Assembly: GCF_050320075.1 (NCBI RefSeq)
Contig: NZ_CP190021.1
DNA length: 64,000 nt
From: Escherichia coli
GTDB lineage: Bacteria > Pseudomonadota > Gammaproteobacteria > Enterobacterales > Enterobacteriaceae
Strand: one strand, 5' to 3'
Each line of letters opens with the position of its first letter. The first letter of the stretch is position 1. The notes beneath the pieces are model-generated. The model had not been told where the DNA came from and made no database searches. It saw only the letters and a list, made by a program, of their open reading frames with translations. Shown in pieces: positions 16,274-64,000 of this stretch. The position numbers were made by a program, and so were the translations under genes.

Positions 16274-17482
16274 TCAGAATTCGTTGTCTGTAGCAGGTGT
16301 GCGGGGCAGGATGTCGTCGGTGAGGGACCAGTTGGTCAGGATGCGGCGTTTCCGGTCGCGATCTGGTTGTGGTTCATCCCAGATAAGACCGAGACTGAGC
16401 ATATCCCGCCGTAAGCCTTCCACCGCTTCATCAACACAGGGTTCAGGGCAGGGAAGGCCAAAACGCATGGCTTCGGCCTCTGCACGTGCAACGGCCACCA
16501 CGCCAGCGCCTTCAATAAATCCTTTCGTGGTATTGGCGCGGTGTAATGCATAAAACAGCGTCCTGTCCACGCCTTTCAGCCAAATCCAGTTGGGTGGCGT
16601 AAGCCGCAGGTCATGTGCATACAGCCAGACCAGCCCACTGCGGACGTAGCGATGTTGTTTCAGCCATTGCTGTGCTCCGTTGCTTTTAATCACTCTCTGG
16701 AAAGCTGATTTGGCCAGTGAATAAACAGGGGTACAGAATTTCCCACTGTCCCGTTTGCTTTTAATTCTGCATGAGAGGTTCAGTGTATCCATGAGCTTTA
16801 ATGCTGCCTTACGATCATCCAGGAAATACTGAAGACCAAATATGGCAAAGAGCGCTTTTTCATGTGGTGCCATGTCTTTCCAGGACGTTAAAGGTTTACC
16901 CAACTGGGCCATGAAACATCGTCTTGCAGCTGCAACATCGAGCTGCATATTGGTGATGAGAGTATGCTGCTCGACAAATGCTTCCGGGGTGAGAGCAACC
17001 CGCCGTTCAGGTCGTTTGCCACCATGAAAGAGTTTTTCCGGATCACCATCTGCCAGTACAGGGGCGATAGCAGGGGACAACGAAGCAAAGATGTATGGCA
17101 GGCGGGTAATATCTACTGGTCTGCGGGTGAAACGACTTTGTCCCGGATGTTGATACCACTCCCACAAACACCAGAGTGTCACAGGTAAGAGGTACATCCA
17201 CAGAATACCTATGGTCTGCTCCATGACGTTAACCCACTGGCTATAGCTTATGTTGGCGGCGTTGTTACCGGTCATGGCAAGCAGGTTGTATCGTGGTGCT
17301 GCATAGTTATGAAATGGTCCCCAGTCAACCAGTCCCCATAAGGTATGAAGAATCAGGCAGCTGGCGTAAACCACTTCCGGCAAGAATAACCATATAACGA
17401 ATAGCAGCAGGATAAGAAGGACACCAACAGCGCCCCATATCTGCATAGGATCTTCTGCGACAGGCTGTCGATTGTAAGACAT
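16274..17482 (-). CDS. trbA: TrbA inner-membrane protein (DotM/IcmP-like)
   Basis: 402 aa with N-terminal transmembrane helices; synteny. Confidence 0.75.
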   Translation of the reverse strand: MSYNRQPVAEDPMQIWGAVGVLLILLLFVIWLFLPEVVYASCLILHTLWGLVDWGPFHNYAAPRYNLLAMTGNNAANISYSQWVNVMEQTIGILWMYLLPVTLWCLWEWYQHPGQSRFTRRPVDITRLPYIFASLSPAIAPVLADGDPEKLFHGGKRPERRVALTPEAFVEQHTLITNMQLDVAAARRCFMAQLGKPLTSWKDMAPHEKALFAIFGLQYFLDDRKAALKLMDTLNLSCRIKSKRDSGKFCTPVYSLAKSAFQRVIKSNGAQQWLKQHRYVRSGLVWLYAHDLRLTPPNWIWLKGVDRTLFYALHRANTTKGFIEGAGVVAVARAEAEAMRFGLPCPEPCVDEAVEGLRRDMLSLGLIWDEPQPDRDRKRRILTNWSLTDDILPRTPATDNEF

Positions 17483-17770
17483 GACAAAGTCTCCATTTCT
17501 GGAATTTAAATCAAACGGAAAGGTTAAAAATTTATTTGCAGGCGATAAGAGCTAACCAGAGGAATTAGCCGTGTGATAAAAGGATTGTTGCAGATACGAA
17601 AGTCGTTAGAATAGCTGCGGGCGCTTGAGGCTGTATGCCGAAAGCGTTTTGTGGACGGTATACAGCAGAAAGCCCCTGGAGATTTTTTTATCAATCAACC
17701 AAGGGCTCTACTGTAATGCCTAGACAACATTATAGTAGCCCGATAACCGCCGTAAGGCAATGGAGGGGCT

Positions 17771-17926
17771 ATGATGCCACAGCGAACGTTTTTAATGATG
17801 TTAATCGTCATCTGTGTGACGATTCTGTGTTTTGTCTGGATGGTGAGGGATTCGCTTTGCGGACTCCGGCTCCAGCAGGGAAACACAGTGCTTGTGGCAA
17901 CGTTAGCCTACGAAGTTAAACGTTAA
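17771..17926 (+). CDS. pndA: Hok-family type I toxin PndA (51 aa), absent from the ORF track because it is under 60 aa
   Basis: Translation MMPQRTFLMMLIVICVTILCFVWMVRDSLCGLRLQQGNTVLVATLAYEVKR has the Hok/PndA architecture (transmembrane helix plus conserved Cys); GGAGG RBS; an overlapping upstream frame (17635-17919) fits a mok/pndC-like reading frame. Confidence 0.85.
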   Translation: MMPQRTFLMMLIVICVTILCFVWMVRDSLCGLRLQQGNTVLVATLAYEVKR

Positions 17927-17966: not shown

Positions 17967-18402
17967 CGAAGGCTGACCTCATTGCGCCCTTTCTTCTTCA
18001 ATGAAGCGTATCCGGTATTGTTTCATTTCCCCTGAAGCCGATTAGCTCCAGCCGAATGCCTTTGCCATCCGGGGCCACGTTCTGCATTTCGCAGATACCA
18101 CGTCGGGTCATGAGTGTGAAGGCTGTCATTGCCAGCATGGCTAACGCATTTTCCTCGCTTCCGCTGCGTTTCTCGAGAGCATCGGCAATTTATTCTATGC
18201 TCCCCACCTGAAAGCAAGAGTCGAATTCTTTACTCCACTTTTCTGACATCGGATTTTCTCTCTGTATTTATGGGTAGTTATCGAACTGAATGTGCCAGTT
18301 TTTTCAGGAGACGGCAAAGTTGAGATGGTTGGTTCTGATTCAAAGCATGAGTTTCCCCGGTGTGACGGGCATGTCGGGCGGATTTTGAGAAACAACAGAT
18401 GT

Positions 18403-18433
18403 AAAAAAACCGACTGGTGAGGTCGGTTTTTTT
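18403..18433. terminator. bidirectional Rho-independent terminator
   Basis: A-run, hairpin aaccgac-tggtgag-gtcggtt, then T7. Confidence 0.7.
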
Positions 18434-18457
18434 ACTGTTCCGTTACAGAGTGGGTGG

Positions 18458-18489
18458 CTCTGGTCGGAAAAGAACTGTCTATAACTGAC
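18458..18489 (+). repeat. 32-bp direct repeat, copy 1 (ctctggtcggaaaagaactgtctataactgac)
   Basis: Matches 18646-18677 at 31 of 32 positions. Confidence 0.9.
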
Positions 18490-18548
18490 CTGTAGATAGT
18501 ACGTCTGGAATTATATTTCTGCAAGTACTGGATAAGTGTATACTCGGC

Positions 18549-18845
18549 ATGTCAGCTCTGAGGCATGTTCTGTCCGGCATATTGTTCAGCGGGAAGAACA
18601 GGTTACAAGTCCTGGCCAAAACATCAGGTGGTGCTGGTTTTGGTGCTCTGGTCGGAGAAGAACTGTCTATAACTGACACTATAGAAACCGTTGTGACAGG
18701 CAGTGTAAGAGCGAACAACGGGGTTCTTTCTCCAGTGATGGAGAAGCGGATGATTAATCTGTTAATCATCGTTCTCAGGGCAGTAGTTGCCGTTGCAAAC
18801 GCGCTGATTGCTGTTCTGGAACTGATCCGGGAACTTATCGACTGA
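18549..18845 (+). CDS. possible small protein with hydrophobic C-terminal helix (98 aa); uncertain
   Basis: ORF ending in a helix-like INLLIIVLRAVVAVANALIAVLELI; weak RBS; overlaps direct repeat copy 2. Confidence 0.3.
   Translation: MSALRHVLSGILFSGKNRLQVLAKTSGGAGFGALVGEELSITDTIETVVTGSVRANNGVLSPVMEKRMINLLIIVLRAVVAVANALIAVLELIRELID
18646..18677 (+). repeat. 32-bp direct repeat, copy 2
   Basis: Matches 18458-18489 at 31 of 32 positions; 188 bp spacing. Confidence 0.9.
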
Positions 18846-18909
18846 TAAGCCTGGAAACGTAACTAAGGGCAGGGAGTTACCGCTTCCTGCCCTTTAACAA
18901 AAAGAGATC

Positions 18910-19086
18910 TCACGTTAAAAATTTGTACCCTTCTTTAACTTCCAGTGCCTGCTCCTTTGACTCAAACATCAGTCTTGTTTTCCCGGGAACGCCCCATGAA
19001 ATGTATTCAACATCTATCCACCATTTTCCATATTCTTTATATGGCCCGGATATTACTTTTTTGACAAAGGCATCTACCAGATTCAT
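18910..19086 (-). CDS. hypothetical small protein (58 aa from the internal ATG)
   Basis: ORF MNLVDAFVKKVISGPYKEYGKWWIDVEY.. in an AT-rich segment; the long track version has an implausible N-terminus. Confidence 0.4.
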   Translation of the reverse strand: MNLVDAFVKKVISGPYKEYGKWWIDVEYISWGVPGKTRLMFESKEQALEVKEGYKFLT

Positions 19087-43790: not shown

Positions 43791-44615
43791 TTACCAGGGT
43801 AATAAAGACGTATTAAATAAGCTAACAGGTAGTATTTGCCCTGTAATAAGGTTCCCGGCAAGGCCAGGTCTCAACGTGACGCGTCGCAAAGACATTGTTG
43901 TATTCTGCCTGGTTGTATATTCAGTTAACCATTTTCTTTTTTCATCGTTCAGAAGTGTTGGTGATAATGATAGTGCCGGATATATTACAGAGCCATTTAT
44001 TTCTTTTTTCTGTCTCAATATTACCCCGCAATATTCTCTTTTCGTATTTCCTGCGAAGGGGAAACTATGCCAGAAAATAACTTCAGTGTTGCTGCTATCA
44101 CTAATAAGCATTCTGAAATTATCAGCAGTATCTGGCCATTCACCGGACAACGCTATCGGATAGTTTTCATGGCCATTCAGCCAGTCCGGATTGAGATTAA
44201 AACATTCAGCAAGATGTTCGAGAGCGTCAGCTGAAAGATAGTCTGCAAGTCTGGCCGGGTCCTGTATAACCGTGGAGCGGATATTCCATGGCGACAGCAA
44301 TGTTGCCAGTAATGGCGCATTTATATCATGCGACAGCATGATGTATTCAATTCTGCTTATTATGTTTCCTGTGGTGTTATCCGCAGGCATAAACATATTA
44401 TGAAGAGCATCCTCAAGCAGGATTCGGGTTAAATCAGCGGTGGATATGGCTAATTGTTCGCTCATTATCCCCAGAACTTCTCTTACCCCTTGGGGGTAAC
44501 GGACCTGCAGAGGTGTCGGGTTTATCTGACGACCGTTGATGAGTTTTTCGCCGATTGCTTTTTTGTCCAGCGAGAGCATCATTCGGGCCGCAATACCGGT
44601 CGTATTCAGTCTCAT
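43791..44615 (-). CDS. traE: TraE
   Basis: 274 aa; last tra gene before rci; synteny only. Confidence 0.6.
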   Translation of the reverse strand: MRLNTTGIAARMMLSLDKKAIGEKLINGRQINPTPLQVRYPQGVREVLGIMSEQLAISTADLTRILLEDALHNMFMPADNTTGNIISRIEYIMLSHDINAPLLATLLSPWNIRSTVIQDPARLADYLSADALEHLAECFNLNPDWLNGHENYPIALSGEWPDTADNFRMLISDSSNTEVIFWHSFPFAGNTKREYCGVILRQKKEINGSVIYPALSLSPTLLNDEKRKWLTEYTTRQNTTMSLRRVTLRPGLAGNLITGQILPVSLFNTSLLPW

Positions 44616-62892: not shown

Positions 62893-63230
62893 AGCAAAGG
62901 TCTCCGATGACAACTAAAAACGCTATCACCGAGTTCCTACGCTCATTGGTGATAGCCCAGACGGGGGTAGGAATACCGGCGTCATCGGAAACCGGCCAGG
63001 CTAATGCCTGCCCCGCCTGAGCTACCATAGATGACGACAAGAAATACAAGTTCCTGTCTTTATGGTATGGCAAAAAACGACGCCAAATGAAGAAATTAAC
63101 TTCTGCGCCGACGATGACTACGCGGGTTCCTACGCCCGATCACAGTTTTGCCTGTGACCAGTAAAGGGTACTTAGTATAACGCACCGAGTCAACTAACAG
63201 CTTAAAAAACATACAAAAAAGCGTCAAAAC

Positions 63231-63884: not shown

Positions 63885-63950
63885 AAGGAAAACCCCCACT
63901 ATCTTTCTTACGAACTTGGCGGAACGACGAAAGATAGTGGGGGCCTCACA
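63885..63950 (-). ncRNA. candidate antisense Inc RNA of an IncI/IncB-type replicon, complementary to the repZ-leader stem-loop I; rep genes would lie beyond the window end
   Basis: + strand stem cccccactatcttt / aaagatagtggggg (63893-63943) with a 23-nt loop containing TTGGCG, the recalled target-loop motif of ColIb-P9-type copy control. Confidence 0.4.
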
Positions 63951-64000
63951 GAATACGGGTAAAGTATAATGAAACCGTACCAGAGATTCAACCCTGTGCA

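Follow-up and report, generated by a model that had tools for sequence, protein, structure and literature searches.

The closest described relatives of the locus analysed here are the DqlB-AgrB systems of enterobacterial plasmids and the chromosomal dinQ-agrAB system of Escherichia coli K-12. The dql genes were named and described in 2016, together with four elements of their untranslated regions (UTRs) (PMC5066626), and experimental validation on IncL and IncX3 plasmids was published in 2025 (PMC12365149, PMC12317039). For the DqlB-agrB locus of pOXA-48 (IncL) this comprised toxicity, rescue by agrB, essentiality of agrB in Tn-seq and killing upon plasmid loss (PMC12365149), and for the IncX3 locus of pOXA-484 both toxicity and plasmid stabilisation were demonstrated (PMC12317039). 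The dqlB gene was found in 67.4% of IncI1 plasmids (PMC12365149).

The DNA analysed here is a 64-kb stretch, referred to below as the window, and an interval within it, located on an IncI1-type conjugative plasmid, very probably represents a complete dinQ-like type I toxin-antitoxin locus of the DqlB-AgrB kind. The locus as such is already known, as the family has been described and RefSeq annotates dqlB at this site. The anatomy of the sequence, the family membership of both genes, and the pairing and covariation of the two RNAs support this assignment directly. In common with the loci of pOXA-48 and pOXA-484, the window specifies a toxin of 31 aa that falls in their NCBIfam family, a divergent small RNA (sRNA) that uses its 5′ ~32-35 nt to pair with a stretch of the toxin 5′ UTR ~70 nt ahead of the start codon, conserved UTR blocks, a hairpin at the Shine-Dalgarno (SD) motif, plus a location on a conjugative enterobacterial plasmid. 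It differs from them in its recognition sequence, and the function of this IncI1 allele is read from homology. The transcription starts of this plasmid, the processing and differential stability of the RNAs, the toxicity of the peptide and the role of the locus in addiction are thus inferred by analogy to the IncL and IncX3 homologues, with which 25-26 of 31 toxin residues are in common, and to chromosomal dinQ.

Comparison with dinQ-agrAB of K-12 (PMC3567139, PMC5066626) reveals the same divergent genes, an sRNA that folds and terminates alike (Rfam AgrB), with an antisense element of ~31 nt at its 5′ end, an mRNA 5′ element that pairs with the target, a hairpin that sequesters the SD, and a target, SD and start codon at near-equal distances from +1. 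The K-12 toxin, however, is 27 aa long and starts with GUG, whereas the DqlB of the window has 31 aa and an ATG start; K-12 carries two sRNA genes (agrA and agrB), as do two of the other loci compared (L007 and L010), while the window carries one; and dinQ-agrAB is chromosomal with a role in the SOS response, whereas the window locus resides on a plasmid and is expected to act in addiction. The zorO-orzO, tisB-istR1 and shoB-ohsC systems are of similar design, in that an adjacent divergent sRNA targets a long, processed 5′ UTR without overlapping the toxin gene, but they have no family membership in common with the window locus and their toxin families are unrelated.

The repeat pair and the sRNA gene

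A sequence-only reading of the region had drawn attention to a pair of 32-bp direct repeats 188 bp apart, and this was borne out, the repeat being one base longer at its left end. The two copies, at positions 18457-18489 and 18645-18677, constitute the sole direct-repeat family found; they are 33 nt in length, identical at 32 of 33 positions, and spaced by 188 from start to start. Allowing up to 3 mismatches, these two copies alone were matched in the whole 64-kb window, and 100 dinucleotide-preserving shuffles yielded no match. The only difference between the copies (A18469 versus G18657) becomes a U-G wobble in the RNA duplex. Copy 1, read on the minus strand, encodes nt 1-32 of the sRNA, that is, its antisense recognition element, and copy 2, on the plus strand, is the target site of the sRNA in the dqlB 5′ UTR and contains an invariant GGAG. 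The distance from the end of copy 2 to the dqlB ATG amounts to 72 nt, as compared to 74 nt for the equivalent in K-12 dinQ.

The gene of an AgrB-family antitoxin sRNA of ~88 nt was located at 18401-18488 on the minus strand by its match to Rfam RF02891 (18488-18401, model positions 1-84, 53.7 bits where the gathering score is 40), the one AgrB hit above that score in the entire window. Its transcription start was placed at 18488 through homology with the mapped start of K-12 agrB (PMC3567139) and is thus a predicted one. The predicted fold (minimum free energy [MFE] −28.3 kcal/mol, z-score −6.98) comprises a free 5′ tail of 19 nt, a stem-loop at nt 20-51 and a terminator hairpin at nt 54-88. 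The latter is a Rho-independent terminator at 18401-18435 on the minus strand, with a perfect 14-bp stem, a 7-nt loop and a T7 tract, and in the AgrB model its aligned counterpart is the terminator. The hairpin had been described as a strong bidirectional terminator at 18403-18433; the hairpin itself is present, with arms at 18401-18414 and 18422-18435 that are 14 nt long, 100% complementary and flanked by A7 and T7, but a terminator scan found it terminator-like on the minus strand, and it is the sRNA's own terminator. The further suggestion of a duplicated small RNA was not upheld, as there is a single AgrB-family sRNA and the other repeat copy is its target.

An AgrB match on the plus strand, at 19 bits, reflects just the palindromic terminator. 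Two other family identities were considered for the sRNA and rejected: OrzO-P (RF02083) reached 33.8 bits where 60 is the gathering score, was driven by the terminator and was outscored by AgrB on identical bases, and the match to the RNAI family was likewise terminator-driven and below threshold. Rfam returned no AgrB match in the IncL/M loci or in locus L016; the sRNA-side copies of these were found via the direct repeat instead, the divergence of the IncL/M sRNAs being too great for the Rfam AgrB model.

The toxin gene dqlB

The dqlB gene occupies 18750-18845 on the plus strand and encodes a hydrophobic type I toxin of 31 aa, MINLLIIVLRAVVAVANALIAVLELIRELID, followed by a stop codon; RefSeq annotates it at identical (100%) sequence in pFORC44_1. 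The NCBIfam model NF041473 (DqlB) matched with 63.8-67.2 bits (cut-off 35) over positions 1-31 of its 31, whereas the DinQ equivalog model NF041472 remained below its cut-off of 30, at 15.9-19.6 bits. The mean Kyte-Doolittle hydropathy of the peptide is 1.90, and it has 25 of 31 residues in common with the pOXA-48-type toxin and 26 of 31 with the IncX3-type toxin, both of which have been validated.

The coding evidence in this region had been judged weak, and a 98-aa plus-strand ORF with a hydrophobic C-terminal helix had been listed as a possible small protein. The helix is the 31-aa DqlB toxin and the last 31 codons are those of dqlB, but the full-length ORF is not conserved, and for the ORF as a whole the verdict of weak coding evidence stands, with stops in most relatives. 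That the ORF at 18549-18845 would be a real gene, in which the repeat encodes a duplicated peptide segment, was considered on the grounds that it is open in the window, that copy 2 lies in its frame (ALVGEELSITD) and that some GenBank records carry a long 'hypothetical protein' annotation at dqlB. Copy 1, however, falls in another frame and is followed by a stop, because 188 bp is not a multiple of 3. Moreover, 10 of the 14 loci have an in-frame stretch of just 8-22 codons 5′ of the dqlB ATG, the ATG of the long ORF at 18549 sits 2 nt 5′ of the predicted transcription start, the NCBIfam match is restricted to residues 68-98, and Dql peptides are known to be frequently mis-annotated with an N-terminus that is too long (PMC5066626). 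We therefore reject the 98-aa ORF as a gene, closed as it is by stops in most relatives; the chance that it is one is minute, and the 98-aa 'hypothetical protein' of GenBank records is a mis-call.

Downstream of dqlB, a hairpin had been reported near 18864-18888, and an inverted repeat with arms at 18865-18876 and 18883-18894 (92% complementary) was indeed found there. It resembles a terminator, marks the 3′ end of the predicted dqlB mRNA (18865-18894, plus strand) and is conserved in every plasmid locus of alignment A1; with TTT alone downstream its U-run is short, which is why the terminator scan passed over it.

Pairing and covariation of the sRNA and its target

The 5′ end of the sRNA and its own UTR target were calculated to pair with −63.9 kcal/mol over 32 nt, of which 31 are Watson-Crick pairs and 1 is a G-U pair. 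Across loci the cognate duplexes ranged from −52 to −65 kcal/mol and those between different recognition groups from −23 to −51 kcal/mol; the window sRNA accordingly showed only weak cross-pairing with the K-12 dinQ mRNA (−32 versus −63 kcal/mol). Among 12 distinct loci, 19 of 33 pairs were altered on both sides, and 88.1% of cells were observed to be paired as compared to 37-48% when the partners were slid; none of 500 shuffles reached the observed pairing score. This formal pair count was made on 12 loci because MAFFT shifted the IncL/M rows in the 14-sequence alignment, and all 14 loci were covered by a register-fixed comparison. Throughout, the differences between the copies obey base-pairing rules, G-U included. 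A third, inverted and partial copy was identified at the 5′ end of the mRNA, and it co-varies with both repeat copies.

These data bear on the proposal that the interval is a regulatory or binding-site array. Regulatory it is in the broad sense, comprising the sRNA 5′ element and its mRNA target, but not as an array of protein sites. Two identical 32-bp sites on either side of a promoter region could, as had been raised earlier, be iterons, an operator pair or a recombinase site. There are, however, two copies only in 64 kb and no replication or regulator gene attached to them, a gene of a curated sRNA family begins precisely with one of the copies, the tolerance of G-U wobble between copies is what is expected of RNA pairing, and the co-varying inverted third copy is explained by RNA pairing and not by a DNA-binding protein, thereby leaving protein recognition of the repeats a negligible probability.

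The recognition sequence is lineage-specific, with at least 8 distinct sequences among the 14 loci; in the window, nt 1-20 of the sRNA read UCAGUUAUAGACAGUUCUUU. Of 33 positions, the window sRNA can pair 32 with its own target, 26 with that of IncX3, 16 with that of IncL and 15 with that of IncM. One plasmid carries two tandem dqlB loci and these differ in their addresses, and in two IncI1-type plasmids the flanks, the sRNA body and the toxin ORF are 97-100% identical, with only 52-83% identity over 18459-18739. The divergence of the latter segment looks as if a control region had been swapped as a cassette. It is quite possible, albeit not quite probable, that the variable ~20 nt at the sRNA 5′ end and their target constitute a private 'address', by which the antitoxin of each lineage would protect only against its own toxin mRNA; we did not find this idea stated in the literature cited here. 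If it were true, co-resident or competing plasmids would be unable to neutralise one another's addiction module, and the lineage-specific recognition sequences offer a modest lead on such antitoxin exclusivity between competing plasmids.

Predicted promoters and the question of LexA control

The toxin and sRNA promoters are predicted to lie back to back, an assignment made via homology and by eye. On the minus strand, the putative sRNA promoter at 18496-18524 consists of a −35 TTGCAG (18524-18519) and a −10 TACTAT (18501-18496) separated by a 17-nt spacer, with 7 nt between the −10 and the start at 18488; the positions of this −10 are invariant in an 11-locus alignment (A8, T9, T12 and A13). 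On the plus strand, the predicted dqlB −10 box TATACT (18539-18544) aligns with the −10 box of K-12 dinQ, and every aligned locus keeps the column block ATA(A/C)T. The predicted starts of the sRNA (18488, minus) and of the dqlB mRNA (~18551, plus) are 62 bp apart, divergent and non-overlapping. A strict promoter scan called neither the sRNA nor the dqlB promoter.

The identical set of parts could also serve an SOS-induced membrane toxin module like chromosomal dinQ instead of an addiction module. In favour of such a role are the homology to dinQ-agrB, which is LexA-regulated (PMC3567139), and a LexA box predicted 119 nt 5′ of dqlB on the IncI1 plasmid pTF2 with a heterology index of 11.64 (PMC12211044); a bare CTG-N10-CAG core is present at 18612-18627, the homologous place in the 5′ UTR. 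Scoring was performed with an approximate weight matrix derived from E. coli LexA sites (training range 16.1-28.8). While the K-12 dinQ promoter site scored 23.1 and a second K-12 site 13.2 with this approximate matrix, the homologous position of the window (18526-18545) scored 8.1 and the UTR site 5.9, and alignment to K-12 established that the window departs from the dinQ operator in both CTG/CAG triplets. The three LexA box patterns of PMC12211044 had zero occurrences in 18436-18760, an interval for which we reject any credible LexA/SOS operator, and the site predicted for pTF2 maps within the transcribed, conserved stem region of the UTR and not to the promoter. Considering in addition that the pOXA-48 homologue kills upon plasmid loss (PMC12365149), we regard an SOS role as unlikely and favour addiction as the function of the window locus.

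The dqlB mRNA leader and a proposed mechanism

The primary dqlB mRNA is predicted to span ~347 nt (18551-18897, plus strand), as the mapped +1 of dinQ, which follows from the published numbering in which GUG is +195 (PMC5066626), falls on G18551 in alignment A1 to K-12. On this numbering the target of dqlB is at +95 to +127, the SD at +190 and the AUG at +200, as compared to +88 to +119, +184 and +195, respectively, in dinQ. The 5′ element at 18551-18578 ('sequence 1' of the dinQ model) is a pairing partner of the target and corresponds to the repeat in inverted, imperfect form; in the MFE fold of the full-length mRNA nt 1-28 are paired with nt 101-127. An RNAalifold consensus of 13 sequences showed covariation in the pairs between the 5′ end and the target, where pairs 1-5 with 138-142 co-vary (CG:6, UA:6 and UG:1, among others), and in two further stems. 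Duplexes of the 5′ element with the target averaged −26.8 kcal/mol for cognate as against −17.6 kcal/mol for non-cognate partners.

The SD (GGAG, 18740-18743) is sequestered in a hairpin at 18728-18745, in which an anti-SD strand UUCUCC pairs with GGAGAA, and the consensus of 13 sequences retains this hairpin (198-201 paired with 211-214). The unpaired probability of the SD, calculated as 0.00 for the full-length mRNA, rose to 0.1-0.3 on 5′ truncation and fell back to 0.00 with the target blocked, and in every 5′-truncated form the MFE structure still holds the SD hairpin. Of the pairings described for the UTR elements, 1:2 and 3:4 are thus predicted and conserved, and the alternative 2:3 was seen only in part. 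A clear thermodynamic switch within the UTR is not claimed here, the effect in silico going in the right direction but being modest (0.1-0.3 SD accessibility) and weak, nor is covariation between the target and the anti-SD strand more than weak, given that these duplexes averaged −19.6 kcal/mol for cognate and −15.7 kcal/mol for non-cognate partners, a low specificity across loci.

The mechanism of the window locus is likely to follow that demonstrated for dinQ, on which the following scheme is modelled. Two divergent promoters, back to back between the repeats, would direct the ~88-nt sRNA leftward and the ~347-nt dqlB mRNA rightward, and because the genes diverge the complementarity of the two RNAs appears as a direct repeat in the DNA. 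In the primary transcript the 5′ end would mask the target and the SD would be held in its hairpin, with the consequence that the primary mRNA would be inert. Processing at the 5′ end would then allow the GGAG-containing target segment to compete for the anti-SD strand and thereby free the ribosome-binding site, whereas binding of the sRNA to the target would take away this competitor and so permit the SD hairpin to re-close, the long sRNA:mRNA duplex presumably also being a substrate for RNase III. Upon plasmid loss the toxin mRNA would outlast the faster-decaying sRNA; DqlB, then synthesised, would enter the inner membrane and arrest or kill the cell that has lost the plasmid (post-segregational killing).

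Conservation and neighbourhood of the locus

The locus was found at 99% identity or more over its length in 548 plasmid records, and at least 5000 records contain a dqlB-like locus. The repeats are therefore conserved in relatives, which had been proposed as a check on their relevance, and diverged relatives keep a co-varying repeat. In two loci (L017 and L019) the inter-repeat DNA is gone and a single copy is left, which, together with the fact that direct repeats are substrates for recombination, would be compatible with the repeat being a neutral duplication or recombination scar and the locus a decaying remnant. Neutral copies, however, would not stay matched while diverging, and here 19 pairs change on both sides; the sRNA, both −10 boxes, the SD, the ORF and both terminators are intact, near-identity is maintained across the 548 records, and the window is unlike the two collapsed loci, which illustrate what decay looks like. 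A recombination remnant, as previously suggested, is hence very improbable, and a functional DqlB-AgrB locus remains the preferred reading. Recombination between the repeats would appear to destroy the locus, judging by the two collapsed examples, while gene conversion could keep the copies matched, because the pairing partners are direct repeats in the DNA.

The neighbours of the locus are trbA, pnd and excA. The hok/sok-type module pndCA, at 17619-17926, lies ~480 bp to the left, and an addiction role of dqlB-agrB could consequently be redundant here. Like the window locus, pndCA is a type I addiction module whose mRNA is inert until processed; it differs in that sok/pndB is a cis-overlapping antisense RNA that acts via a leader ORF and in that its toxin is of the Hok family, and it forms a locus of its own. 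With pnd next to dqlB-agrB, IncI1 plasmids of this kind possess a pair of type I addiction modules, a circumstance that bears on attempts at curing resistance plasmids. Plasmid records are without annotation of the sRNA gene, of both promoters and of the target site, and the practical value of the present analysis lies in supplying this annotation.

Two small proteins of the vicinity were also inspected. A neighbouring protein of 58 aa had no match in Pfam. The minus-strand ORF of 43 aa (17998-18129) that had been put forward as a possible small protein does exist as an ORF ending at 17998, but it is the tail of a conserved minus-strand gene of 83 aa, left over by a premature stop in the window.

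The direct repeat and the genes that carry it

The pair of 32-bp direct repeats described in the sequence-only reading was borne out, as a repeat search returned two copies of 33 nt, at 18457-18489 and 18645-18677, which are identical at 32 of 33 positions and lie 188 bp apart from start to start. With up to 3 mismatches allowed these were the only copies in the entire window, and none of 100 shuffles contained any. The hairpins noted on either side are both present, the left one (18401-18435) as a perfect 14-bp stem flanked by A7 and T7, and the right one (18865-18894) recovered in the same search. While the observation thus stands, its interpretation as a binding-site array, duplicated small RNA or recombination remnant is right only in part; on the evidence of sequence comparison, the feature is the antisense pairing interface of a DqlB-AgrB type I toxin-antitoxin module, a kind already known.

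The first copy belongs to a predicted AgrB-family sRNA on the minus strand (18488 to 18401), which scores 53.7 bits in Rfam (gathering score 40) over the whole length of the model; its nt 1-32 are the reverse complement of this copy, and the supposed bidirectional terminator is the terminator of this sRNA. Folded alone, the sRNA leaves a 5′ tail of 19 nt free, followed by a single stem-loop and the terminator (z-score -6.98). Its predicted minus-strand promoter, TTGCAG-17-TACTAT followed by 7 nt to T18488, has -10 positions that are invariant across the alignment. The toxin gene dqlB lies on the plus strand at 18750-18845, where RefSeq annotates "dqlB, DinQ-like type I toxin" at the equivalent position, and its peptide MINLLIIVLRAVVAVANALIAVLELIRELID scores 64-67 bits with the NCBIfam DqlB model (cut-off 35), while falling under the cut-off of the NCBIfam DinQ model. 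The second copy, ending 72 nt before the dqlB ATG, is thereby placed within the 5′ UTR of the toxin mRNA.

Two possible small proteins proposed earlier did not hold. The 98-aa plus-strand ORF is not a gene, as the in-frame stretch 5′ of the dqlB ATG is short in relatives (just 8-22 codons in 10 of 14 loci) and its own ATG is upstream of the predicted transcription start; Dql peptides are frequently over-long in annotation (Kristiansen et al. 2016, PMC5066626). The 43-aa minus-strand ORF is a fragment, the tail of a conserved hypothetical gene of 83 aa (17998-18249, minus strand) with a premature TAA at 18192-18190; the gene is intact (276-527) in L011, a locus at the same backbone site of an IncI1-type plasmid, with GAA in place of the TAA, and RefSeq annotates just its 63 downstream codons on pFORC44_1. 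A further 58-aa ORF (MNLVDAFVKK...; 18910-19086, minus strand), convergent with dqlB and annotated as a hypothetical protein, has no Pfam match and accompanies dqlB in IncI and IncK loci.

The dql genes were named from enterobacterial plasmids, together with four UTR elements (Kristiansen et al. 2016, PMC5066626). For DqlB-agrB of pOXA-48, a 2025 study reported toxicity that agrB relieves, an essential agrB in Tn-seq and killing of cells that lose the plasmid, with 35 nt of complementarity and with dqlB in 67.4% of IncI1 plasmids (PMC12365149), and an IncX3 locus was shown to be toxic and to confer stability on a plasmid (PMC12317039). Together these studies place the window locus in a known family, validated through its pOXA-48 and IncX3 members; the lineage-specific recognition sequences described below are the sole lead that goes somewhat past what the literature found states, the locus otherwise being of an already known type.

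Pairing and covariation across loci

Owing to the divergent orientation of the sRNA and dqlB genes, complementarity between their RNAs takes the form of a direct repeat at the DNA level. The duplex between the 5′ end of the sRNA and the UTR of its own locus has an energy of -63.9 kcal/mol, and the lone A/G mismatch of the two copies is accommodated in it as a U-G wobble. Among K-12 dinQ-agrAB and 17 plasmid loci (IncI, IncK/Z, IncF, IncX1/3/4/5, IncL/M), the repeat is present in K-12 and in 16 of the 17 plasmid loci, the exceptions named being L017 and L019; its spacing is 176-241 bp in plasmid loci and, with agrA in between, 430 bp in K-12, and across loci the second copy ends ~69-76 nt 5′ of the toxin start. 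The repeat sequence varies by lineage, with the two copies matched inside each locus. Of the sRNA:target cells in 12 distinct loci, 88.1% are paired, and sliding the partners by 1-3 columns lowers this share to 37-48%; 19 of 33 pairs have changed on both sides, and no shuffle (0/500) reached the observed pairing score. For sRNA nt 1-20 across all 14 loci, cognate targets pair at 19.5 of 20 positions and non-cognate targets at 13.9, and cognate partners form duplexes of -52 to -65 kcal/mol, compared with -23 to -51 across recognition groups. This comparison of pairing and covariation is strong evidence, drawn from sequence, for selection of the repeat as an RNA-RNA interface, and it rules out both a neutral scar and a site bound by a protein.

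At least 8 recognition types were distinguished. Two plasmids carry tandem dqlB loci, p92-9000 (L012, 1860-3033) and pRHB13-C14_3 (L004, 25-1153), in which the toxins are almost identical and the sRNA/target types differ, one being that of the plasmid locus L005 and the other that of the window. The loci L017 (IncK2/Z, 600-843) and L019 (IncX1, a plasmid dinQ, 651-898) are collapsed to a single repeat copy, with neither promoter left and the sRNA body fused straight to the distal UTR, and the L017 ORF is shortened to 27 aa; recombination between direct repeats would produce just this. Window and L011 share 97-100% identity in the flanks, sRNA nt 31-88, the dqlB ORF and the terminator, but just 52-83% across 18459-18739 (sRNA 5′ end, promoters, mRNA 5′ part and target), a mosaic pattern which looks like exchange of the control region as a cassette. 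L007 (34-118) and L010 (15-99) each have, upstream of the cognate sRNA gene, a second one of the AgrB family on the minus strand, which recalls the agrA/agrB pair of K-12; the pairing of this sRNA with the dqlB UTR of the same locus is poor (-23 kcal/mol).

Predicted folding of the toxin mRNA

By alignment to K-12 dinQ, with published numbering (PMC5066626), the predicted plus-strand -10 box TATACT (18539-18544) coincides with that of dinQ and the predicted +1, G18551, with its mapped start. The sRNA target then falls at +95 to +127 (+88 to +119 in K-12), the Shine-Dalgarno (SD) at +190 (+184) and the start codon at +200 as AUG (+195 as GUG). In the dinQ model the mRNA 5′ end (1) pairs with the target (2) and the anti-SD (3) with the SD (4) in the inert transcript, 2 pairs with 3 in the active form, and AgrB sequesters sequence 2 (PMC5066626). 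In the full-length fold of the predicted 347-nt mRNA, the first 28 nt are base-paired to the target at nt 101-127 and the SD is held in a hairpin (18728-18745; unpaired probability 0.00), so that the inert dqlB mRNA would have its target covered and its SD locked. With the 5′ end truncated, part of the target would pair beside the anti-SD strand and the SD would open, to an accessibility of just 0.1-0.3; blocking the target, as the sRNA would, is predicted to close it again (0.00). These changes agree in direction with the published switch, and given the modest effect we infer such a switch from folding and analogy. In an RNAalifold consensus of 13 UTRs, the pairing of 5′ end and target was retained along with two internal stems and the SD hairpin, and 15 of 29 pairs had changes on both sides. 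Covariation is seen between the 5′ end of the mRNA and the target (cognate -26.8, non-cognate -17.6 kcal/mol), and that between target and anti-SD is weak (-19.6 versus -15.7 kcal/mol). The invariant GGAG within the target is likely the SD mimic.

Comparison with dinQ-agrAB and the question of SOS control

The window locus differs from K-12 dinQ-agrAB in having one sRNA gene rather than two and a toxin of the DqlB rather than the DinQ subfamily, and it lacks a credible LexA operator. An approximate matrix of E. coli LexA sites gave the operator of dinQ a score of 23.1, the homologous window position 8.1, and a CTG-N10-CAG inside the UTR 5.9. A LexA site has been proposed for dqlB on pTF2 (PMC12211044); it maps onto the transcribed, structurally conserved UTR region that holds this CTG-N10-CAG. 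The differences would fit constitutive expression and an addiction role over SOS induction. Over the whole window the LexA-box-like site with the highest score is AACTGAATATACAACCAGGC (43907-43926; 19.1 with the same approximate matrix), which lies inside a 274-aa minus-strand ORF (43791-44615).

Plasmid context

The window is of an IncI1-type conjugative plasmid. To the left of the interval are trbA (16274-17482, minus strand) and a hok/sok-type pnd module (17619-17926, plus strand; Rfam sok at 17619-17776, 134 bits; 51-aa Hok-family ORF at 17771-17926), and to the right excA and traY. As pnd is ~480 bp from the sRNA terminator, two type I addiction modules are adjacent. The repeats, whose conservation the sequence-only reading had left to comparison with other IncI plasmids, are kept in relatives: a 541-bp query spanning the locus is 100% identical to pFORC44_1 (IncI-gamma/K1), and 548 plasmid records match it at 99% identity or more. 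Elsewhere in the window Rfam matched a C4 antisense RNA (62945-63032, minus strand, 77.5 bits) and PK-repZ, the regulatory pseudoknot of repZ (63885-64000, plus strand, 144.9 bits), the latter cut off by the window end and marking the IncI replication control region.
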